Below are positions 8,987 to 27,115 of a stretch of 27,115 nucleotides of DNA, in pieces. Position numbers and translations under genes: made by a program. Origin of the DNA: Promethearchaeota archaeon (GTDB lineage Archaea; Asgardarchaeota; Lokiarchaeia; Sigyniarchaeales; SOKP01); the NCBI GenBank assembly GCA_011364925.1, contig RDOA01000048.1, positions 1 through 27,115 of the forward strand. The letters run 5' to 3'. Under the pieces are notes generated by a model. It was not told the origin of the DNA. It saw nothing but the letters and a program-made list of their open reading frames with translations, and searched no databases. Numbering within the stretch: the first letter of the stretch is position 1; every line of letters begins with the position of its first letter.

Positions 8987-9087
8987 GCCTCCGTGGCTTA
9001 GCGGTATAGCAGCAGAATTTCATTAACTTCTATAATTTGCTGAAACTTGTAATCTGCAGATCGCGGGTTCAAATCCCGTCGGAGGCT
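8987..9087 (+). tRNA. tRNA-Thr(UGU) with 29-nt intron (9016-9044) at position 30/31
   Basis: Acceptor stem GCCTCCG/CGGAGGC with discriminator T; D-arm GCT..AGC; anticodon stem GCAGA/TCTGC with loop CT-TGT-AA after splicing; T-arm GCGGG-TTCAAAT-CCCGT. No encoded CCA; T-tract follows. Confidence 0.92.
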
Positions 9088-13120: not shown

Positions 13121-14215
13121 TTAGCGAACTGAAATTTTAGGAGCAGGAATAAAAACTTTCCTAAGGCCCGTTCTTCTTAATTTAATAGCATTTTCGGGAC
13201 AGGAGTGAGCACAGACTCCACATCCAAAACATCTATCCTCATTAACTTTAGCGGTGGCATCATTCAATTCAATTGAATTCATTGGACATGCATCCAAACA
13301 AGTACCACACCCAACACAATCGGTTTCGATGACATTTGCAATATACGATGTATAGGTGTGAGTTGGGGACGTTCCAGAATAAAACGCTTGAAAGTTACCA
13401 CAACAGCACGAGCAGCAATTACAAATAGCTAATTCTTCTTGTTGTGGATCCCCTCTTATATGGAACGCTTTATGAACTAAACCTATGTCTTCTGCTTCTT
13501 TTAATATTTTGAGTGCTTCTTCTTTAGAAATTGATTTTGCAAAGTTATGATCTATCACAAATTTGGCGGTTCTTCCGAAACTTAAGCAATTTTGTTTTGG
13601 AGCGTTAATTTTACAAGAATCTCCAAGTAAATCTTTTAGGTGCCGACAATAACAATATGAAACGCCTATTATATCGTATTTTTCTATAATTTTTCTTACC
13701 TCTTCCTCAGGTAATACTAGCTCTTCGTGTGGTTCTATTTGTTGTTCTATAGGGATTACTCTATCTATTGGTGGAGCTTCTTTAAACGCATTCATAACGA
13801 TATCGTAATTATTTTGAGTTACATCGGTCTCTTCTTTAAATAATGTATCCCACAATCTTGCTAGTTTCTTTTGTTTTTCTCCTGTTTCACCTTTCATAAG
13901 CGTAAATTCTAATAAACCGGGTAAGAAGGCAACTAATCGATAAACCGTTATTCCAGTAGTTTTACTTGGAATCCCCGTGATCATTCCAATGTTCATTAGC
14001 TCGTTTAACATATCGTTTAATGAAGTCTCCTCCATCTCGATTTTGGATTTTAGCTGATCAAAATTAAGTGGTTTTCTAAATTTCAAGAGAAAGACCAATT
14101 GATCTTCGTTTATTAAAGTTTTAAGTAATTCGATAAGAGTATTATTAATCGGAACGGGAGGTCCTCCAGCTCTAAGAATGTTTCTCGCCAGTTGATACCA
14201 TAACTTCTCAGACAC
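13121..14215 (-). CDS. 4Fe-4S binding protein (N-terminal HTH-like region, CxCR, ICNCCSCCC, C-terminal 2x[4Fe-4S] ferredoxin)
   Basis: CYCRH, ICNCCSCCC, CVGCGTCLDACP and CFGCGVCAHSCP. Probable GTG start at 14215 after GGGTGA (track start 14227). Confidence 0.85.
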   Translation of the reverse strand: MSEKLWYQLARNILRAGGPPVPINNTLIELLKTLINEDQLVFLLKFRKPLNFDQLKSKIEMEETSLNDMLNELMNIGMITGIPSKTTGITVYRLVAFLPGLLEFTLMKGETGEKQKKLARLWDTLFKEETDVTQNNYDIVMNAFKEAPPIDRVIPIEQQIEPHEELVLPEEEVRKIIEKYDIIGVSYCYCRHLKDLLGDSCKINAPKQNCLSFGRTAKFVIDHNFAKSISKEEALKILKEAEDIGLVHKAFHIRGDPQQEELAICNCCSCCCGNFQAFYSGTSPTHTYTSYIANVIETDCVGCGTCLDACPMNSIELNDATAKVNEDRCFGCGVCAHSCPENAIKLRRTGLRKVFIPAPKISVR

Positions 14216-14232
14216 TGTGTTAATCACCCGTT

Positions 14233-15342
14233 TTACATGGTTTTGATCCTAGGAGGTGGAACAAATACTTCACGATTTTCTACTCTTTTCAATATGATAG
14301 CCTGCTCGGGACAGTGATGAGCACAGACTCCGCAACCAATGCATTTTGAATCGTCGACTTTTGCGGTTGAGTCATTTAACTCAATGGTATTCATTGGACA
14401 TAAATCTATACAGGTTCCACAGCCTACACAGGTATCGTCCATTACTTCTGCTAAATAATTAGTAAAACAATGGTAAGGCATGACTCCATTACTATAAAGC
14501 TGAAAAATACCACAACAACAGGAACAACAATTACAAATAGCCTCTTCATCTAACTCAGTTTTTAGATGGATGTGAAATGCTTTGTGGACCAATCCTTCAT
14601 CTGAAGCTTTGCTAATTATTGCTTTAGCTTCTTCTTTTGATACTTTATTACCGAATTTATGTTCTATGGCAAATTGCGCGCTTTTACCTAGGAGAAAACA
14701 ATTTTTTCTCTCGTTTGTAACTTTACAGGGTTTTCCAAGTAAATCTCGAGAATGCCGACAATAACAATGAGCTAAAGCAATGTCGTCGAATTTGTCAACT
14801 ATTTTGGATACTTCTTCATTTGGTAAAATTTTTTCAACAGGAACATTATTTATTTCTTCTTCAACTGGAACAATTCTAACGATCGGAGGAAAGTTTTCCG
14901 ATTGTTTTACGAAAGTCTCATAATTATTTTGTGTTCCTTCTCGCATCTCAACAACCAGTTGTTCAAACAATTTAGCAATTTTCTTATGCCTTTCATCCGT
15001 TTCTCCTCTAAGATTAGTATATTCGAACATCCCTGGGAATGGTCCTAAGAGCCTATACACCATAGTACCTGTGCTCCTACTTCGCGTTCCAACGACAATT
15101 CCGTTATCCATCAAATCGTTTAGCATCTCAATTAATGCTTTTTTGTCAAGATTTGTCTTTTCTTTAATCTGTTCAATGCTTAAAGAAGGTTTTTTAAATA
15201 TCTGCAAAAAATCTGCTTGCTCTTCAGACATTATTAATTTTAATAATTCAATTAGAGTTTCGCTAATTGGCACTGGCATTTGTCCGGCTTTGACAATTGT
15301 TCGTGCTGCTTTATACCAGATTTTTTCACTTTCTAAAGTCAT
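14233..15342 (-). CDS. 4Fe-4S binding protein, tandem paralog of 13121..14215
   Basis: CYCRH, ICNCCSCCC, CVGCGTCIDLCP and CIGCGVCAHHCP; collinear with the downstream paralog over its full length. Confidence 0.85.
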   Translation of the reverse strand: MTLESEKIWYKAARTIVKAGQMPVPISETLIELLKLIMSEEQADFLQIFKKPSLSIEQIKEKTNLDKKALIEMLNDLMDNGIVVGTRSRSTGTMVYRLLGPFPGMFEYTNLRGETDERHKKIAKLFEQLVVEMREGTQNNYETFVKQSENFPPIVRIVPVEEEINNVPVEKILPNEEVSKIVDKFDDIALAHCYCRHSRDLLGKPCKVTNERKNCFLLGKSAQFAIEHKFGNKVSKEEAKAIISKASDEGLVHKAFHIHLKTELDEEAICNCCSCCCGIFQLYSNGVMPYHCFTNYLAEVMDDTCVGCGTCIDLCPMNTIELNDSTAKVDDSKCIGCGVCAHHCPEQAIILKRVENREVFVPPPRIKTM

Positions 15343-17342: not shown

Positions 17343-17522
17343 TTATTTATAATCTCTATTAATTTCATTCTCGATTTCAATTTCTCCGGGAGTCCAGGTT
17401 GTATAATCCAGATATTTCCAGAAGTTGCTTTCGCTCATACGAGATTTTTTTATCTTTATAAGATCTTTATTGCTTCCTAAAGGAAATTGGTTTTCAATTT
17501 TCTTAATAACTTCTTTTTCCAT
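17343..17522 (-). CDS. 59-aa microprotein A (MEKEVIKK...WTPGEIEIENEINRDYK)
   Basis: Strong GGAGGTG RBS (17534-17528) 5 nt before ATG 17522; lies downstream of structured leader A. Confidence 0.65.
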   Translation of the reverse strand: MEKEVIKKIENQFPLGSNKDLIKIKKSRMSESNFWKYLDYTTWTPGEIEIENEINRDYK

Positions 17523-17534
17523 TTTTTCACCTCC

Positions 17535-17749
17535 AAATATCAATTATATTTCCGTTGAGGTGCCGAAAACCTTTATGATTTCGATTTAATTAAATTTGGA
17601 TCCAATCAGGCGAGAGCAAATCCAAGAAAAAATTAAAAAGAAGATCGAAAAGGATCGACTCTCATTTATACAAATACTACCATTAATACTACTTCTAACA
17701 CGGATATAACTTTTTCAAATGAACATCGAACAGTAGTATTTATGATCAT
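17535..17749 (-). ncRNA. putative structured 5' leader, unit A
   Basis: Stem 1 AUAAAUACUACUGUU/AAUGGUAGUAUUUGU; stem 2 GAGAGUCGAUCC/GGAUUUGCUCUC around a U-rich loop with UCUUUUUAAUU; a weaker third domain follows. GU pairs form only on the minus strand. Homologous to unit B. Confidence 0.55.
17633..17665 (-). CDS. putative leader peptide MRVDPFRSSF (uORF in stem 2 of unit A)
   Basis: ATG..TAA occupies the same position as MKRINPFSFPFSF in unit B; length differs by whole codons. Confidence 0.35.
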   Translation of the reverse strand: MRVDPFRSSF

Positions 17750-17772
17750 TAAAATTAATATAGCAACGATAC

Positions 17773-17780
17773 TATTTAAA
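17773..17780 (-). promoter_or_regulatory. TATA box for unit A
   Basis: TTTAAATA preceded by purine-rich GAAACA, at -31..-24 relative to 17749, just 5' of stem 1. Confidence 0.45.
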
Positions 17781-17968
17781 TGTTTCATAGACTAAGCTAA
17801 TTTTAAGAAAACATATATTAGATAGGACTTTTTAATAAAATGAATCCAATTCTCATAATAAACAGAATATAAGCAATTCTAATCAACCCAAGGGTTGCAA
17901 CCAACTTAAAATTCCAATTTTTATACATAATTGACCAATATAATTAATATAAAAAGAAAAAATTGAAA

Positions 17969-18142
17969 CTATTTTGATAGTTTTTTATATTTTTGTCTCA
18001 GATAAGCCATTTTTTTATGATCCTCACTTTCTATTTTCCCAGGATAGTCTGAAATGTCAAACGACATCATAATCGGTGCAACATCAGAACTCCAATTTTT
18101 GTAGTACTCGACTATGGGATCTAGTTTTGCTTTATCTGCCAA
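17969..18142 (-). CDS. 57-aa microprotein B (MADKAKLDP...DYPGKIESEDHKK...)
   Basis: GGAGGTG RBS (18158-18152) 9 nt before an in-frame TTG at 18142; the track ATG 18160 overlaps the RBS. Lies downstream of structured leader B. Confidence 0.6.
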   Translation of the reverse strand: MADKAKLDPIVEYYKNWSSDVAPIMMSFDISDYPGKIESEDHKKMAYLRQKYKKLSK

Positions 18143-18159
18143 TTCATTCTTCACCTCCA

Positions 18160-18357
18160 TTTGCTATTTATAATTTTTGCGTCGAGAAGTGAATCCTATT
18201 CCCTCTTTTTCTTAGAAATTGATCGCAATTATACGCAGAGAATAAATCCAAACAATTAAAAAGAAAAAGGAAAAGAAAAAGGATTTATTCTCTTCATAAT
18301 ACTGTGATTAATGGAATATTGGTGCGCTTGCAACCAACCCATGAACCAGTATTATGT
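18160..18357 (-). ncRNA. putative structured 5' leader, unit B
   Basis: Stem 1 CAUAAUACUG/CAGUAUUAUG with inner AUGG/CCAU and GUUGGU/ACCAAU; stem 2 perfect 12 bp GAGAAUAAAUCC/GGAUUUAUUCUC around a U-rich loop with UCUUUUUAAUU; stem 3 UGCGU/ACGCA closing sub-hairpins. TATA-like TTTTTATA at 18388-18381. Confidence 0.6.
18256..18297 (-). CDS. putative leader peptide MKRINPFSFPFSF (extendable in frame to ATG 18342, 28 aa)
   Basis: ATG AAG AGA ATA AAT CCT TTT TCT TTT CCT TTT TCT TTT TAA; same position as the unit A uORF. Confidence 0.35.
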   Translation of the reverse strand: MKRINPFSFPFSF

Positions 18358-18561
18358 CGCGAAATATACATTATTAAAAATATAAAAAGAATGTACACTA
18401 ATAAATATTGTGGGCATTTATTCCCATATACTTTAATATTCTATTGAGCATTAATCAAAAATGTAACTAAAGCTGATTAATAATCTATTAAATTCATTAT
18501 GCTTTTTATTCATCATCGCAGATTATTTGCTAATATCTAAATTACAATATACTTTAGAATA

Positions 18562-20023: not shown

Positions 20024-20968
20024 ATGAAATCTAATACAAACAATAAATCTGAAGAGAAGATTACAAAAGCTACTGAACTTCTCTGGAAGATATGGTGGTT
20101 CAGTTTTTATTTAATCATAGTGCCGTCCTTAATTGCTGTTGTAGGATTTTTCATTTACTTCTTTGTCGGAAAAGACCTTTATGTCTCAATTGGTCTATCG
20201 GTTATAACTTTTATGTTTGTTCTGTTGTTTTTCTTTAAATCTTTTGATAAATATCGAAATAATCCATTTTTTCTCAACAAGAAAAACAATCTTTCCGCTA
20301 GGATCAATATCCTTTTCCTCATTACGATTTTATCACTTATTGTTACTCCAATTTTTGTAATTTTAACTCCGGGAGAAGACATCTATTTTGAGCTCTTACC
20401 TTTAATTTCGTTCATTTTACTTTATAACATAGTGTATTACTATTTTTTTTTCCAACCTATTGATAATTTTGACTTTACTGAATCAAGATATAAACACGAA
20501 TCCCCTTTTTCTGAATGGATTAAACAACCATACAATTTCATTGTGTTATTTAATTATGTCATTCATATTCTTTTTCTTTCATACACTTTTGATACTAAAA
20601 TATCCTGGTTATTTCCGCTTATCTCTAATGTAATATTTTATCTAATTAGCCGTTTAACTACCATAAAGAACATTAAGAGACTGACTGCATCTAACATAGA
20701 TGAAAAATCATTTTTACGAGAGTTAACCGTCTACAAGAAAAAATTCATAAATATAATTCTCACCTTAAACTTTACGCTAATAATTCAATTGCCCTTTGTA
20801 ATTACTTTGGGGTTTATCTTCTCGGGTGTTGATTACCAGGTATTGGAGTTAATTACGATATCGTTTTTAGCTTTAATCTTTTTATCGTTCTACTTTAAAA
20901 TCAGGTTGTACGTAAGTTCCTACTATAACAAACTACTTAGGAGGTTTGAAATCAATGAACACGAGTGA
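20024..20968 (+). CDS. multi-pass membrane protein of unknown function
   Basis: About 8 hydrophobic segments by eye. Start ATG 20024 or GTG 20015. Overlaps the start of the giant ORF by 14 nt. Confidence 0.75.
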   Translation: MKSNTNNKSEEKITKATELLWKIWWFSFYLIIVPSLIAVVGFFIYFFVGKDLYVSIGLSVITFMFVLLFFFKSFDKYRNNPFFLNKKNNLSARINILFLITILSLIVTPIFVILTPGEDIYFELLPLISFILLYNIVYYYFFFQPIDNFDFTESRYKHESPFSEWIKQPYNFIVLFNYVIHILFLSYTFDTKISWLFPLISNVIFYLISRLTTIKNIKRLTASNIDEKSFLRELTVYKKKFINIILTLNFTLIIQLPFVITLGFIFSGVDYQVLELITISFLALIFLSFYFKIRLYVSSYYNKLLRRFEINEHE

Positions 20969-23900
20969 TTCTGAGGATTTAGATTTAGATATTAACAGGA
21001 AATATTATAAATTAAATTTTGTAGTCTCGTTATTGTTAATCTTACTCACTTTTTCAGTTTCTATATTGAATAATACTCTTGTTATTGCTATTATTGCTTT
21101 ACCAGCAATGTTTATTCTCACCTATCTAGAGGAAAAATACAATTTTACTGTTAAAAGTTATAGTAGATTTGTATATCTAATTAACTGTACAATAATCTTA
21201 ATTTTAGTAATATTTTGGATTTTCTCGGCATATTTTGGGTTTAATTTCATTAATATACAATTTATAATTTTCAACTTGTCCTTTTATTTTATTTTACAAA
21301 TTTTTGTCAAATTTGACTATTTTAAAGAAAGGAACATTTTAATTGTCCAAAATATTTTCGCAGTTGCTACTTTTACAATTATTTTGTATTCTTTCTTTCC
21401 TTTTATCGAACTTATATACATAGATTTCACTTCAAATCCTATTTTAATACTAGTCTCTAATGTTATGATTCATTCGATTATTATCTTAATCATTACTTTA
21501 ATTTCTTTTTATTTCTTATATGCTAGGATCAAGTTATATAAGAAACCATGGAAGCTTTTTAATTATATCATAATAACCGTGTTCTTGTTAATCGAGATCA
21601 TTGGATTTACTTTATTAAATATTAGAAATTTCCATCTAGGCGTTCCAATATTTCAAAGGGGTTTGAAAGTATCAACCATTTTGCTCTCAGTTTCGTTTCT
21701 TATATTTGTATTATTTAATTACATTATTCGTGTTTTTGCTCGGGAACTTAGTCTACTGCTTGTTTACTACTCTTGCTGGTTTTTAGCTTCTTCGATCTTT
21801 TTGGTGCTCATCGTCCTTTATTGGAGTAATATTGTTATAGTATTTTTTGATTTAATTCTTGTAACAGTTCTTTCGCTTTTAAATTTAAAATTTGGAACTT
21901 ATCTGAAAAAAATCAAAGAGAAGACTTTCTTAAAATTAGTTAAATTTAGCTTTTATGCACTTCTGTTAGAGATCTTCTTATTATTCTACGGGATTTTCAA
22001 TTATTTCTTCTTCTTAAATATAATTATCTCTTTATTTCTCTCCTTGTGCATTATAGGAGGTATCTTTAACCTACTATCGTACTATGAAAAAGTTATATCA
22101 AGAAAAATCAGGATCATTATAACTTCATTCATCTTTCTTTCTGATATTTCTATTGTAATATTTTACTACATCACCGCTAACATTGGGTCTTTCTATGTTT
22201 ACCTGGTTCTTCCAATTATACTTTGTTTTCTATTCTATATTCCAATCTATTATCTGTATAAAGAAGATGTACTTAAAAAGAAAATTCTTGCACTATATAG
22301 TTATCTATCCTCATGGGCACTTACAATAATAATTTTCACGCTGAATTTTTTTATTATCGTTGCATATTTCTATGCAGACCTTCTATTAGGTTCTCTTTTA
22401 AATTTCTTGTTCCTGACTTTTTGTCTCGTTGTTCTCACATCCTTTGGTAGGAAAATAAAGAGGTTAAAAGAATCGTCCTCTCGGGTTATCTTAAATTTCT
22501 TAAGTTATCCTATTATGATAGAAATATTCATTCTTCTTTTTACTGTGTTCGCATTCTATCTCAGACTAGATGGCTTCTTATCCTCGTTTTTGTCGCTTTC
22601 TATAATTAGTTTTATTTTTTATTTGTTATCGAAGCAAGAAAAATTATTTCCTAAATTTCCGAAAATAATTTTAAACACAATCACATTTTACTTTGGTGTT
22701 TTCATTGCGGGATATTACAGCGTTTTGTTTACTCTTGGAACCTACTTTCTTTATTTCATACCGCTTATTATTATTAGTGTTCTTTCATATCTGCCAATTT
22801 TTTACTTATATAAGAAAACTGTTATAAATCGTAACACATTTTTAAAATATCATTTCTTTTGCTCTATAATTATCTCGCTGGCTATTTTCGCTTTCAATTT
22901 CTTTACGATTTTTAGCTTCTTAAACGTGTTTATAGTATTCTTGATAATAGTTAATATTCTTTATATTTCTGTTGTTTCTTATTACATTTCCAAATTAGGA
23001 GTAAAAGTGAACATTGTATCGAAAGAATTTTTTAAGAAGTTTTCTGCTTTCATAAATGTTTTAATTATTATAGAAGCCTATGCAATTTTGTACTCAATTT
23101 TTAACCAGGAGTTATTAGTAGAGCCAGTTTTATCAGCTTATTTTTCAACCATCCCTATTTGCTTCTTAATCAATGTTTTATCAAGATCAAGAATTATCTT
23201 CTCAGATAAAAGCGCGATTGGAATAAACATATTAACTTTAACTTTTACTAGTGCTCTCATATCTTACTATGCTTACTTATTTACTTATAACTCGATTCTT
23301 GTTTTTATTCTCCCTCCGTTAGTCTTTAGCATACTAATGTTAGCTCCTTTATATTATTCCTTAAGTAAGAGAATATTCCGCAAATTTGTTGAAAAAGTGT
23401 TGCTAGTAGACAGTTTGTTAATATGGATGTTAGTCGTTTCCCTCCCAACTATAATAAGTCTGGAGTTAATGAGAATTGGAATTATTATTGATTATAGTTT
23501 TATCCTGATTCCGACAATAATTTTGATCTTTGGAGTTTCAAGGTATATTGAGTTTCTTGTCGACAAATATAAGGTCAAGGAGAAATATATTGTTACTCTT
23601 AAATCAATTCAGATTATAATTTTTGTAGCTTTAGCTACATCCATCTGCTTAAGGATTTTCCAATTGATTTATTCTTTAACTTATAATTATTGGTTAAGTC
23701 TAGGAAGTTCTTGTTTAACTTTTTTAGTTGTCAATCTTATCAATCTAGTTCCATTAGAAAATCTTAAGCAAAGGATTTTTGAGAACGAAGGAAGTAAATA
23801 CGATTATTATAAAATCTACAAAATATTCGAATACACCAAAAATCTCTCATTTTTTGCCATAATAGTATCTCTAGCCTTTATAATTACACTGTTAATCCCC

Positions 23901-26900
23901 ACTCAGTTCTTAGTGTCTCTTTTGCATCTTCCTGAACCAGCACTCGTTCTTGTAGTCAGCAATATCGGAGTTTTTATTGTACTATATTTAATCTTATCAA
24001 CTATTGGTGGAACTTTATTTAAAGTAAATTTTATTAAATTAAAATCCACTTTTGAATTATCTGCATGGATTTTTGTTAATTTCCTGGTTTTCTTATATAT
24101 TTTTGTTCTCCCTATGCAATTTTCTTTACTCTTACGGATAACAATACCATTGGTAATCACTATTTTTATGTTCCCTATTACGCTTTATTATCTTCAAAAG
24201 CTCACATTCATCTCTGATAGGACACTGAAGTTCTCTAAGAAACTACTCTTTTATCTTTTTTCTGGCGGATTGATCGTTATTTTTGTCTATATATTCTGGT
24301 TATACTCCAATACCATCCCATTCTTTAGTTCGAATCTGTCTCTCCAAGTTTTCCTTGCAGGATGCTGTATATACCTATTTCTGAATTTCTACTTACTTAA
24401 ATTTGATGCAGTTGTCGAAAGAGCAACGGAATTTCGAATTGTAAAAATCTTTTCTGGCTCTTTTTTAGTATTATTCTCTTTATTTTCAGTATTCCCTAAC
24501 TTTCTTGATTATATATCTTACGCAGTCTTCATAATAGCAATAATTGTATTGCTCCTTAATCGAAACCGCAACTATTTAACACGCACAATCTATTACCTCT
24601 CCCTTAGTGCTTTTATATTCATTAAAGCGGTTGTGACTCTGAATCAATATATGCTAATTCCTTCTTTTAGTTTCACTTACATAACGCTTTATTCGTTCAT
24701 TTATAGCTTTTCGCTAATGGGAATGTTATTCTTATCGATTTTAATTAACTTAAAGAAAGTAAATGTAGTCGAAAAGTTTGCGTTATATTTTTTGATCTCT
24801 TTGAATTGCCTTATATTGTTGATTCTAAACACAGTGATTCCGTTAATTTACAACCTTTCAATTTCCGTATTCATATTCCTATTATTGACAAGTAATTTTT
24901 TCTATAGGCAAAAGGATGAGCGTTATAAATGGTTTATTAGACCGTGTGTACTTCTCTTCGCATTTGGTTTAGTAAGTTATCTTTCTTTTTATATCCTTTT
25001 CAACAATCCACTTTTTCAAGCTTTTAATCCAATCTTGACTTTCACATTAACTTCTACCATAACCGGTATTGCTTACGTAGGAACGTACAATAAAACACCT
25101 GAGAAGTTCAGAAGAATATCGTTTTACATTGCATTTTCAGTCTACATAATTTCATTTCCTACTTTTATGTATTTTTTCTTGAATGCTCTTTTTTCCTTAC
25201 AGTTATGGGATACATTCTTGTTTTTGATAACGATTAACATGGGAATTGCTCTATTTTATATCTCAATTGGTGTATATTACTGGAAGTTTTCGAGGGCGAT
25301 ATGGAAGACTGGTTGGAGAATTTGGATATTAGTTCCGTTTGTTAATTTCTATCTCATTAATGAATTGTTCACAAATATCTCATTTGTGAAAAATACACTA
25401 AATTTCTTTAACATTCTTAGTATTAATGGTTCATTTATTATATCGTTTGTAATATGCGTTCTAATTTCGCTACCTTTTTGGTATTCGTGGATTAAAAAGC
25501 ATTTTACTGTAGTACTCCTAGTAGTCTGGAGTTTAAGTTTGTTTTTCTTATATTGGTTCAGCCAAAATATTTTTCCAGATAATGTGGTAATAACCAATAT
25601 CGTATTTGTTGTATTCGCTATTTCTTTATTGGTTCCCCTAATCTATAGATTAAAACTTTGGAAAGTTATCACTGTTCTATGGCTAATTTATATCTTTGTA
25701 AATGTCTCGTTCTTTTTTACATTATTTTTAGAGATTCAATTATCTTTAGAAATCAATTTATCAATCAATATAATTATAATTGGACTCTTCTTTCTCATTT
25801 TGTCGTTTTTCCCGAATCTTCGGAACATAAAAAATGTAATTCTAATCGGTTCTTATCTCATTTCTCTAACAGGAATTTTTCTTACGCTTTTTAACATAAT
25901 TAATGCGATAATTTTGAATTTTTTCATTTCAATAAATATAGCTTTTATATTAATTGCATTGAGTTTATTTTCATCCAGAATCCTTAAACTCAACAGAACT
26001 TTCTTCAATTTCTTGATCTCCGCGATTTTAATCGTTAATTTCTCGTTGTTCACTTACAACGCTCTTATTTTGATCCCTGGATTCGAAATATTTTCAATAT
26101 TTCTAGCAATTACGGTTTTTGGTGGTTCTCTTTTCGTATTTAATAAATTTAGGATGATTATTCCAATAAAGAAATTAATTCCTTTAACGATATTATCTCT
26201 TGGAGTCTCCTTAACACTATCCTATTTAACATATACATTCTTACCCGGTTTCATTTACTTAGCGATAGCTGTTTTTATTTTGGTAAATTCCGTAATTTTA
26301 AGGTCACTACTCTACGAATACCGATTTATCTTGTGGTACGCCTTTCCAATTCCCTTAATTTTAATCTTTTTGCAATTTATAGTATTATCTGATTTATTTC
26401 AATCTCCGTTTGTTTTAATTCTATTATCTTTAATATTTTATACAGCATTAAATCAAATTCCATGTAGCTTATACAGAAAAAAAGTTAAAAATCAAGAAGA
26501 TCTAAAAGATTTTGGTTTATTAAAAGTTGAGCCCGTTCTCTTTTTGCTCCTCCATTTCGAAATCGGATTATTGAGTTATAGTTTAGTGAGTCAATTTCCA
26601 CCAATAGGTTTATTTGAAGCAATCCTAATCTCCATAATAGTTTTCTTTATCTCCACAATATCCGAAATCTACCTTTTTAAGAAAGCAAATGAAAAAGTAA
26701 TATATACATTTAATATAATTGCATATATCTTTATTACTATAGGAACCTTCGTATTTATACATCAATTCACAACGATAGATTTATCTATTTTTGTATTAAA
26801 CATAGTAGTGTTCTTAATTTTGCAATTCTATACACTCTATGCTTTTGCACATTATGTTGAAGTATTAACTCAATATGAAGCAAGTAAAATAAAAAAATTT

Positions 26901-27115
26901 CGAAAACAAATTCAAAATATCTTATTGAATTCAATTTTTATTGTAGTTAGTATATATATTTCGCTACTATTAAGTAATCTATTAATAGCATATAATCCAT
27001 TACTCTCTGGATTTGCCTCATTATCCTTTTTTGGGATGGTTTTTTCCTTATTGATGTTTGTACTTAACGGGATACTCAATCGCACAATAGAAAAAAGATT
27101 TAAAAATATAATTCT
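20955..27115 (+). CDS. giant polytopic membrane protein (>2050 aa, 3'-truncated) with internal 184-aa repeats
   Basis: ATG 20955 (MNTSDSEDLDLDINRKYYKLNFVVSLLLILL...). The frame is open wherever I read it, including the last bases (VLNGILNRTIEKRFKNII), and the track lists no closed ORF in this frame. Hydrophobic helices alternate with Lys-rich loops throughout. Confidence 0.85.
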   Translation, partial: MNTSDSEDLDLDINRKYYKLNFVVSLLLILLTFSVSILNNTLVIAIIALPAMFILTYLEEKYNFTVKSYSRFVYLINCTIILILVIFWIFSAYFGFNFINIQFIIFNLSFYFILQIFVKFDYFKERNILIVQNIFAVATFTIILYSFFPFIELIYIDFTSNPILILVSNVMIHSIIILIITLISFYFLYARIKLYKKPWKLFNYIIITVFLLIEIIGFTLLNIRNFHLGVPIFQRGLKVSTILLSVSFLIFVLFNYIIRVFARELSLLLVYYSCWFLASSIFLVLIVLYWSNIVIVFFDLILVTVLSLLNLKFGTYLKKIKEKTFLKLVKFSFYALLLEIFLLFYGIFNYFFFLNIIISLFLSLCIIGGIFNLLSYYEKVISRKIRIIITSFIFLSDISIVIFYYITANIGSFYVYLVLPIILCFLFYIPIYYLYKEDVLKKKILALYSYLSSWALTIIIFTLNFFIIVAYFYADLLLGSLLNFLFLTFCLVVLTSFGRKIKRLKESSSRVILNFLSYPIMIEIFILLFTVFAFYLRLDGFLSSFLSLSIISFIFYLLSKQEKLFPKFPKIILNTITFYFGVFIAGYYSVLFTLGTYFLYFIPLIIISVLSYLPIFYLYKKTVINRNTFLKYHFFCSIIISLAIFAFNFFTIFSFLNVFIVFLIIVNILYISVVSYYISKLGVKVNIVSKEFFKKFSAFINVLIIIEAYAILYSIFNQELLVEPVLSAYFSTIPICFLINVLSRSRIIFSDKSAIGINILTLTFTSALISYYAYLFTYNSILVFILPPLVFSILMLAPLYYSLSKRIFRKFVEKVLLVDSLLIWMLVVSLPTIISLELMRIGIIIDYSFILIPTIILIFGVSRYIEFLVDKYKVKEKYIVTLKSIQIIIFVALATSICLRIFQLIYSLTYNYWLSLGSSCLTFLVVNLINLVPLENLKQRIFENEGSKYDYYKIYKIFEYTKNLSFFAIIVSLAFIITLLIPTQFLVSLLHLPEPALVLVVSNIGVFIVLYLILSTIGGTLFKVNFIKLKSTFELSAWIFVNFLVFLYIFVLPMQFSLLLRITIPLVITIFMFPITLYYLQKLTFISDRTLKFSKKLLFYLFSGGLIVIFVYIFWLYSNTIPFFSSNLSLQVFLAGCCIYLFLNFYLLKFDAVVERATEFRIVKIFSGSFLVLFSLFSVFPNFLDYISYAVFIIAIIVLLLNRNRNYLTRTIYYLSLSAFIFIKAVVTLNQYMLIPSFSFTYITLYSFIYSFSLMGMLFLSILINLKKVNVVEKFALYFLISLNCLILLILNTVIPLIYNLSISVFIFLLLTSNFFYRQKDERYKWFIRPCVLLFAFGLVSYLSFYILFNNPLFQAFNPILTFTLTSTITGIAYVGTYNKTPEKFRRISFYIAFSVYIISFPTFMYFFLNALFSLQLWDTFLFLITINMGIALFYISIGVYYWKFSRAIWKTGWRIWILVPFVNFYLINELFTNISFVKNTLNFFNILSINGSFIISFVICVLISLPFWYSWIKKHFTVVLLVVWSLSLFFLYWFSQNIFPDNVVITNIVFVVFAISLLVPLIYRLKLWKVITVLWLIYIFVNVSFFFTLFLEIQLSLEINLSINIIIIGLFFLILSFFPNLRNIKNVILIGSYLISLTGIFLTLFNIINAIILNFFISINIAFILIALSLFSSRILKLNRTFFNFLISAILIVNFSLFTYNALILIPGFEIFSIFLAITVFGGSLFVFNKFRMIIPIKKLIPLTILSLGVSLTLSYLTYTFLPGFIYLAIAVFILVNSVILRSLLYEYRFILWYAFPIPLILIFLQFIVLSDLFQSPFVLILLSLIFYTALNQIPCSLYRKKVKNQEDLKDFGLLKVEPVLFLLLHFEIGLLSYSLVSQFPPIGLFEAILISIIVFFISTISEIYLFKKANEKVIYTFNIIAYIFITIGTFVFIHQFTTIDLSIFVLNIVVFLILQFYTLYAFAHYVEVLTQYEASKIKKFRKQIQNILLNSIFIVVSIYISLLLSNLLIAYNPLLSGFASLSFFGMVFSLLMFVLNGILNRTIEKRFKNII
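21891..23546 (+). repeat. three tandem protein-level repeats of 184 aa (552 nt) within the giant membrane ORF
   Basis: Anchor codons recur every 552 nt: Gly 21894/22446/22998, Glu 21969/22521/23073, Pro 22242/22794/23346 (PIYYLYK, PIFYLYK, PLYYSLSK). Confidence 0.8.

Follow-up and report, generated by a model that had tools for sequence, protein, structure and literature searches.

Candidate ribosome-dependent attenuators upstream of two microprotein genes in a Promethearchaeota genome

Described attenuators and the locus

Classical leader-peptide transcription attenuators are known from E. coli, namely ilvL-ilvGMEDA, ivbL-ilvBN, leuL and pheM-pheST. Attenuators of leuS and trpS were predicted in Streptomyces, and the mechanism of the actinobacterial LEU element upstream of leuA was reported as ambivalent (PMC1262725). 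Other leaders of interest are the mycobacterial polycysteine sORF attenuators (10.1101/834739) and the antisense-controlled rep leader of ColIb-P9, which serves plasmid replication (PMC4705826). The archaeal 3’-end nuclease aCPSF1 needs two U4 tracts, which are read by the Loki ortholog as well (PMC8716108), and Loki aCPSF1 is functional in M. maripaludis (PMC7515710). No report of leader-peptide attenuation in archaea was found in the literature searched, whose coverage largely excludes subscription papers.

The window analysed here, a stretch of 27,115 nt, corresponds to contig C58 of a genome of 3.9 Mb with 33% GC. Two minus-strand units, A and B, are located in a gap that has a convergent gene resembling LL-diaminopimelate aminotransferase on one side and a divergent GH4 gene on the other (Table 1). 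This arrangement is kept in relatives. Elsewhere the window contains a tRNA interrupted by an intron of ~30 nt (8987-9087, matched in Rfam), two paralogs in tandem that combine HTH and 4Fe-4S and adjoin a DUF134 gene (13121-15342), and an ORF of >2050 aa that continues past the window end (20946-27113).

Table 1. Features of units A and B, given as positions in the window.
Feature	Position	Strand	Remark
B upstream box TGGGA-N7-CCCA	18411..18427	-	putative factor site
B TATA-like box	18399..18405	-	sequence
B leader ORF	18294..18371	-	25 codons, ends I-P-L-I-T-V-L-stop
B 5’ strand s5	18358..18365	-	codons 2-5; pairs with 18173-18181 (P1)
B stem 1 (P2)	18295..18356	-	arms 18347-18356 and 18295-18304, wholly inside leader ORF
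B strand a (switch strand)	18281..18293	-	directly 3’ of leader stop
B strand b	18254..18280	-	U-rich loop, four U4+ tracts; candidate terminator, partner of b’
B strand a’	18237..18249	-	local partner of a
B strand b’	18199..18220	-	partner of b
B strand a’’	18184..18196	-	distal partner of a; SD partner when a is unavailable
B P1 3’ strand	18173..18181	-	partner of s5
B Shine-Dalgarno GGAGGUGA	18151..18158	-	core invariant in alignment A4
Microprotein B	17969..18142	-	57 aa, TTG start (18140-18142)
A TATA-like box	17773..17780	-	31 nt 5’ of leader ATG
A leader ORF	17666..17749	-	27 codons, 3’ half Val/Leu-rich; kept in 11/11 homologs
A stem 1 (P2)	17670..17743	-	arms about 17732-17743 and 17670-17681
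A strand a	17652..17663	-	stem-2 5’ strand
A strand b	17631..17651	-	U-rich loop
A strand a’	17612..17623	-	stem-2 3’ strand
A strand b’	17577..17591	-	partner of b
A strand a’’	17557..17571	-	ends in anti-SD CACCUC; CCUCA invariant 10/10
A Shine-Dalgarno GGAGGUGA	17527..17534	-	before microprotein A
Microprotein A	17343..17522	-	59 aa, ATG start, paralog of B

The original prediction saw in these units tandem duplicated, riboswitch-like leader RNAs dedicated to microproteins. Its coordinates and letters all agreed on re-check. Stem 2 (a/a’) is present with a loop of 28 nt in A and 31 nt in B, its divergence (GUCG/UUGC in A versus AUAA/UUAU in B) was described exactly, and the GGAGGUG ribosome binding sites were found together with both ORFs. 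Compared to 200 shuffles, folding yields z -5.24 for B (0/200) and a modest z -1.85 for A (9/200). The abutting third paired domain turned out to be no separate hairpin; its strands pair with the loop and the 5’ strand of stem 2. A duplication is evident for the proteins (hhalign probability 93.9, E 1.6e-7) but not for the leaders, which with 46% identity are the least alike pair of the leader family (A reaches 53% with other members). Hence a simple recent duplication does not apply, and the tandem seems to be an old arrangement rather than a fresh copy.

When trained on B alone, a covariance model retrieved A at E 1.9e-6 as well as a third copy on contig C56. The stem-2 pattern does not occur elsewhere in the host genome. 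Rfam contains nothing relevant at the gathering threshold or at E<=10 (best E 0.88, far below thresholds). With three copies in the host genome and a synteny fixed between aminotransferase and GH4, a MITE or mobile repeat is excluded. SECIS, C/D and H/ACA readings were rejected, as the required motifs are absent on inspection. Our data support an RNA element instead of a DNA palindrome, and a conserved, covarying family of cis-regulatory leaders on the minus strand preceding real small genes. The family is not dedicated to microproteins, as it also precedes leuS, acyl-CoA dehydrogenase and FrhB-like genes. The composition of an upstream ORF shifts with the gene behind it, and the leaders would be leader-peptide switches in place of riboswitch-like elements or ncRNAs.

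Like the classical attenuators, the Asgard leaders combine a short ORF containing codon runs with a hairpin over this ORF, mutually exclusive helices and a stop from which a ribosome could mask the switch strand, and they are used before an aminoacyl-tRNA synthetase. Cognate runs of the classical kind are found in the leuS copies (Leu 49-62%); in A (Leu/Val-rich) and B (40% Ile/Leu/Val) a tie between the run and the gene behind it would be putative. Unlike the classical systems, the leaders are archaeal, probably leaderless and devoid of a GC hairpin followed by oligo-U; the U-tract resides in the loop of the proposed antiterminator, b/b’, a’’ and P1 are additional, and one RNA core is reused before unrelated genes. 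Intrinsic terminators (hairpin, then oligo-U) were not found, with U4 tracts rarely following b’ (8/93). Since no Rfam attenuator matches in sequence either, we do not regard the leaders as members of bacterial attenuator families.

The polycysteine attenuators have a leaderless first ORF of ~30 codons with a C-terminal cognate run and free the downstream SD on stalling, features that the Asgard leaders would share; in mycobacteria it is the run that base-pairs around the SD, whereas the Asgard leaders would use a relay strand after the stop plus a candidate terminator (10.1101/834739). A Leu-run peptide, a pseudoknot competing with an alternative hairpin and a closing stem to the SD are reminiscent of the LEU element (PMC1262725), which differs in topology, has no U-tract and shows no sequence similarity that we could find. 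In ColIb-P9 the position of leader termination drives refolding, as would be the case here, and the downstream start codon is weak, but there is no amino-acid run (PMC4705826). The arrangement of at least two U4 tracts within 36 nt after a stop codon resembles aCPSF1/FttA terminators (PMC8716108, PMC7515710), although those papers describe gene ends and the Asgard tracts are placed inside a 5’ leader where structure would gate them. By analogy, the Asgard leaders would function like the bacterial ilv/leu/pheS attenuators and like the leaderless mycobacterial polycysteine switch.

Leader ORFs and the genes behind them

Judged by its conservation, an upstream ORF passes through stem 1, which is thus coding, a property overlooked in the original prediction. 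All 93 homologous leaders (82 B and 11 A; the leader ATGs of L071 and L125 were set by hand) contain an ATG-opened frame of 20-32 codons running through stem 1. In the variable apex (1178 variable codons) no stop triplet is in frame, compared to 92 and 68 off-frame. Measured from the core of helix a, the leader stop falls between -6 and +5 nt in 93/93, and three frames and all three stop codons are used. The stop directly precedes strand a in 57 leaders; another 35 have a shifted frame whose stop lies within a, and the remaining one reads a third frame up to a TAG of its own. The two frames of unit B leaders end ..VL (class I, 47) and ..IKRE (class II, 35). Leader peptides are weakly constrained (dN/dS 0.67-1.19), suggesting that the act of translation is kept and not the peptide. 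Based on the frame switch, the selected feature is where the ribosome ends, i.e. the position of the stop.

The distance between TATA-like box and leader ATG is 28-37 nt in 88/92 leaders and about 31 nt in A and B. The ATG therefore sits where the archaeal TSS is expected, and the leader RNA is probably leaderless. A second ORF of 4-35 codons overlapping the leader stop was rejected as a family feature: it occurs in 41/47 B class I and 11/11 A leaders but in 1/35 of B class II, 10/28 of the leuS leaders and 1/20 of the others.

The third of the family copies in the host genome (G000 C56:2194-2289; L157:1504-1599) carries the same RNA core before an archaeal-type leuS, and its leader ORF comprises 31 codons, 10 of them Leu. 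Including this copy, the core was found in 28/28 leuS loci, which were picked by similarity to the host copy and are hence no random sample. Within the last 15 codons, leuS leaders consist of 49% Leu, 11% Val and 2% Ile with five Leu codons in use, and leaders of bacterial-type leuS reach 62% Leu. Val dominates ahead of an acyl-CoA dehydrogenase-ETF operon (47%) and Ile ahead of an FrhB-like Fe-S gene (43%). Unit A leaders (Leu 39%, Val 37%) match another type with Leu 38% and Val 37%, seen before a third small protein that ends in IAW. Unit B leaders are diluted, with 40% Ile/Leu/Val versus 25% in the proteome (baseline Leu 10%, Val 5.7%, Ile 9.8%). The Ile/Leu/Val codons cluster at positions -1 to -8 before the stop, and in the shifted frame of B, Ile/Val fall on these very nucleotides as well, with 89% and 78% at -4/-5. 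Codon content and pairing are coupled, since part of the Val/Leu run sits in the 3’ arm of stem 1.

The leader is common to archaeal- and bacterial-type leuS, so the switch seems to have been re-attached to a different type of synthetase. Bacterial-type leuS genes (L223, L167, L170, L171) carry the leader that is seen before archaeal-type leuS in other genera. In genus g22 (L166, L173) the leader precedes an acyl-CoA dehydrogenase-etfB operon whose enzyme has an N-terminal extension; this extension opens with residues similar to those at the beginning of the IAW microproteins, as if the cassette had been placed ahead of a duplicated gene and fused to it. The Ile-rich leaders at L164, L168, L204, L221 and L227 precede the gene of an FrhB-like Fe-S protein of 483 aa, which probably carries an additional domain at its C-terminus.

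A broader covariance model matched 9/12 genomes of the host family and 0/18 outside, with 99 candidates scored per genome, so that this range is a lower bound (84-150 candidates per genome across the covariance-model scans). Within the searches made, the leader appears to be restricted to one family of Promethearchaeia, again as a lower bound.

Mutually exclusive helices and the proposed switch

Downstream of the leader stop the strands are ordered a, U-rich b, a’, b’, a’’, P1 strand and SD. In B, 96.6% of the stem-1 cells are paired and 3/8 pairs are compensatory; for strand a the paired fraction of cells is 98.6% against a’ and 83-96% against a’’. Strand s5 is additionally complementary to the GUGAAAA end of the SD region.

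The helices were evaluated by a swap test of own against cross-species partners in 23 representatives of <80% identity, and by pair counts on 55 sequences. Own partners bind better in a/a’ (-14.7 vs -13.3 kcal/mol), a/a’’ (-7.6 vs -6.5 kcal/mol), b/b’ (-12.0 vs -8.6 kcal/mol) and 5’ end/P1 (-5.4 vs -3.5 kcal/mol). Changes on both sides are seen in 7/10 pairs of b/b’ and 6/7 of P1, and slid controls gave ~50% pairing. Support for the helices rests on these two approaches, as MI-APC on a MAFFT alignment was dominated by phylogeny and returned few helix pairs; p-values overstate, the genomes being kin. The sequence of helix a is near-invariant among B leaders. Across the family it varies with pairing retained (a/a’ -18.5 vs -11.9). 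For a/a’’ within leuS leaders no covariation was found in fixed windows. A natural variant with a weakened lock is seen in L043 and L044, where unit A has a 12-nt deletion that takes with it the GGA at the end of a’.

Covariation and constrained folding support, computationally, that a/a’ and a/a’’ exclude each other. In state 1 the local hairpin a/a’ holds b in its loop and b’ forms at most a partial pseudoknot. State 2 is a long helix of a/a’’ and b/b’ closed by P1, and its energy is close to that of state 1. Opening the SD of A costs 6.4 kcal/mol in state 1, 6.2 when the stop is occupied by a ribosome and 1.1 once state 2 has formed; the corresponding values for B are 3.0, 3.8 and 1.7 kcal/mol. 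Sequestration of the SD by a leader strand is thus clear in A (CACCUC), weak in B and absent in most leuS copies. The MFE fold of B pairs a’’ with the SD, and this complementarity is hardly better than in shuffled sequences (-5.1 vs -4.5) and does not covary.

At least two U4 tracts are located in the a/a’ loop of 75/93 leaders, and b contains on average 2.25 of them versus 1.38 after the main stop. An SD-like 4-mer was found in 4/26 leuS leaders, and two or more U4 tracts are kept in 22/27. As most leuS copies have U tracts yet no SD, the ancestral output was probably termination. The host genome encodes aCPSF1.

Taken together our data suggest that the leaders are very probably a ribosome-driven RNA switch. 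Units A and B would be, on balance, branched-chain-amino-acid attenuators that depend on the ribosome and gauge charged tRNA. We are rather confident that unit A senses branched-chain amino acids, and for unit B the chance seems slightly better than even. Control of a synthetase follows negative feedback, meaning that the stalled state is ON as in pheST and T-boxes. If the same applies to leuS here, a/a’ would be the protective fold. We consider this polarity, stall = ON, reasonably likely; whether termination at strand b is part of the mechanism is evenly balanced.

In the proposed sequence of events, a ribosome would load at the 5’ AUG and trail the polymerase, perhaps with stem 1 as a pause hairpin. 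With charged tRNA at hand it would reach the stop and cover a, thereby blocking a/a’ and leaving the U-tracts single-stranded for aCPSF1, and the transcript would end early. In RNA that is read through, a’’ would occupy the SD (OFF). When Leu-, Val- or Ile-tRNA is short, the ribosome would stall a few codons earlier, a/a’ would close around b and transcription would continue. The full leader could then refold to a/a’’, b/b’ and P1, setting the SD free (ON). Units A and B would thereby have gained a second, translational layer via a’’ and P1, and the stall-ON proposal would make the microproteins starvation-induced. If the ribosome is assumed to cover 10 nt beyond its A site, as in bacteria, modelling gives a/a’ a probability of 0.07-0.19 when the ribosome sits at the stop, rising to 0.75-0.98 when it sits at codon -3. 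A point against this order is that b is transcribed before a’ and hence is briefly exposed whatever the ribosome does.

The polarity might also be the opposite one. In this case a/a’ would be a kinetic OFF lock that is melted by a ribosome finishing the leader ORF, whereupon b/b’ would zip, strand a would bind a’’ and the ON state would be secured by P1, and expression would rise with plentiful amino acids. Such a coupling has its precedent in ColIb-P9 rep (PMC4705826). It agrees with a’ being the stronger and earlier partner of a, with two folds close in energy and with the weak start codons in B, and it would suit the catabolic-looking acyl-CoA dehydrogenase, before which a starvation-ON switch is not obviously logical. 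Still we hold it to be unlikely, because leuS would come under positive feedback on Leu-tRNA, the conserved U4 tracts and the SD-less leuS leaders would be left unexplained, and the proteins encoded behind the leaders contain few of the residues that are sensed. Retaining sensing and polarity of the stall-ON model, the leader could act on translation or mRNA stability only, b being U-rich merely to pair with b’. The mycobacterial leaderless attenuators act in this way (10.1101/834739), and the drop in the cost of SD opening between the states (6.4 to 1.1 in A, 3.0 to 1.7 kcal/mol in B) is what such control would use. The scarcity of an SD to hide in leuS leaders, the orientation with the U-rich side first, which is never reversed, and the surplus of U4 tracts in b render it distinctly unlikely.

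Another reading holds that the RNA senses the speed or coupling of translation in general, with the Leu/Val/Ile runs as by-product of an AU-rich hairpin. It is most plausible for B, where two frames give different C-termini, and the weakly constrained peptide as well as the overlap of the run with the stem-1 arm would fit. We judge it improbable, as the dominant residue tracks the downstream gene by means of synonymous codons and the second frame of B retains Ile/Val at the same nucleotides. The framing of the original prediction, a structured 5’ UTR binding a ligand or protein or a co-transcribed ncRNA for which translation is irrelevant, would account for the near-invariant a/a’ among B leaders. 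It is very improbable in view of an open frame with fixed stop in 93/93, the free variation of a/a’ across the wider family with pairing retained and the lack of an Rfam match. Finally, the hydrophobic leader peptide could itself be the product. A-type peptides end in 8-14 hydrophobic residues and fall within the size range of ShoB and TisB. A type I toxin-like membrane peptide is hardly credible, however, given that the peptide is not conserved (dN/dS about 1 in A), that the C-termini of B class II peptides are charged and that the same RNA core precedes leuS.

Returning to the stall-ON attenuator, what the locus adds are two members that would control microproteins, the selection on stop position seen from the frame switch and the a’’/P1 layer. 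If the mechanism is true, translation and transcription in Asgard archaea would be coupled tightly enough for feedback at the level of codons, and the ancestor of a eukaryotic 3’-end nuclease would serve as regulated attenuator. A more far-reaching reading, which we regard as possible and somewhat doubtful, is an archaeal attenuation of an origin independent of Bacteria: a leaderless ORF would gate the CPSF73-like nuclease aCPSF1 at a U-tract via a relay from hairpin to pseudoknot to long helix, and then the SD, such that only slow but completed translation yields protein. This would define an Asgard branched-chain-amino-acid regulon including starvation microproteins. The leader would moreover be a portable RNA switch for archaea.

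Microproteins and promoter elements

Microproteins A and B share the motif LD....PGEIE.E and are remote paralogs whose relation is visible by profiles alone; BLASTP of A against B gave no match. Homologs of B exist in 98/134 genomes of the host family and in 0/26 from other families, and A has counterparts in 9 further members of the genus. Purifying selection acts on both microproteins (dN/dS 0.27-0.34 for B, 0.40 for A). Start codons of B homologs are TTG (31), CTG (26), ACG (15) and ATG (9), i.e. 72/81 are non-ATG, while A always starts with ATG. In a small sample, non-canonical starts seem common in the host lineage. Neither Pfam nor a PDB fold search nor the ESM Atlas matched a family or fold. 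The structure model (pLDDT 73, pTM 0.34) contains one C-terminal helix. Among longer fused forms (>126 aa) there was no scoring match, which is weak evidence. The leader would supply the microprotein family with a physiological context, namely branched-chain amino-acid shortage.

Leu and Val are scarce in proteins A and C (4-5% and 2-3%), in which Ile is abundant (14-16%). Protein B is poor in Ile and Val, Leu not being reduced. It is at most suggestive that composition mirrors the proteins’ own leaders, a weak relation since the microproteins are short and related.

The third small protein, 41-46 aa long and ending PAE..I.E..IAW, is located 3’ of the leader in distant genera. At these loci (L070, L073, L144, L146-L151, L161-L165, L216) a B-like gene follows without own leader. 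Natural fusions of both proteins occur in P0011, P0016 and P0021. The A/B profile did not match the C-type microproteins (E>=0.14), and the link rests on a motif and on these fusions.

Among the promoters, 79/82 of B and 8/11 of A contain a TGGGR element <=80 nt from the leader ORF start, compared to 0/28 leuS leaders. TGGGA-TATA is not enriched before TATA across the host genome and hence is no genome-wide regulon motif. The TGGG half-sites 5’ of the TATA box (18411-18427 in the window) are inverted in some genomes and direct in others. A GTGTACA palindrome is found 3’ of the TATA box in many members of the genus.
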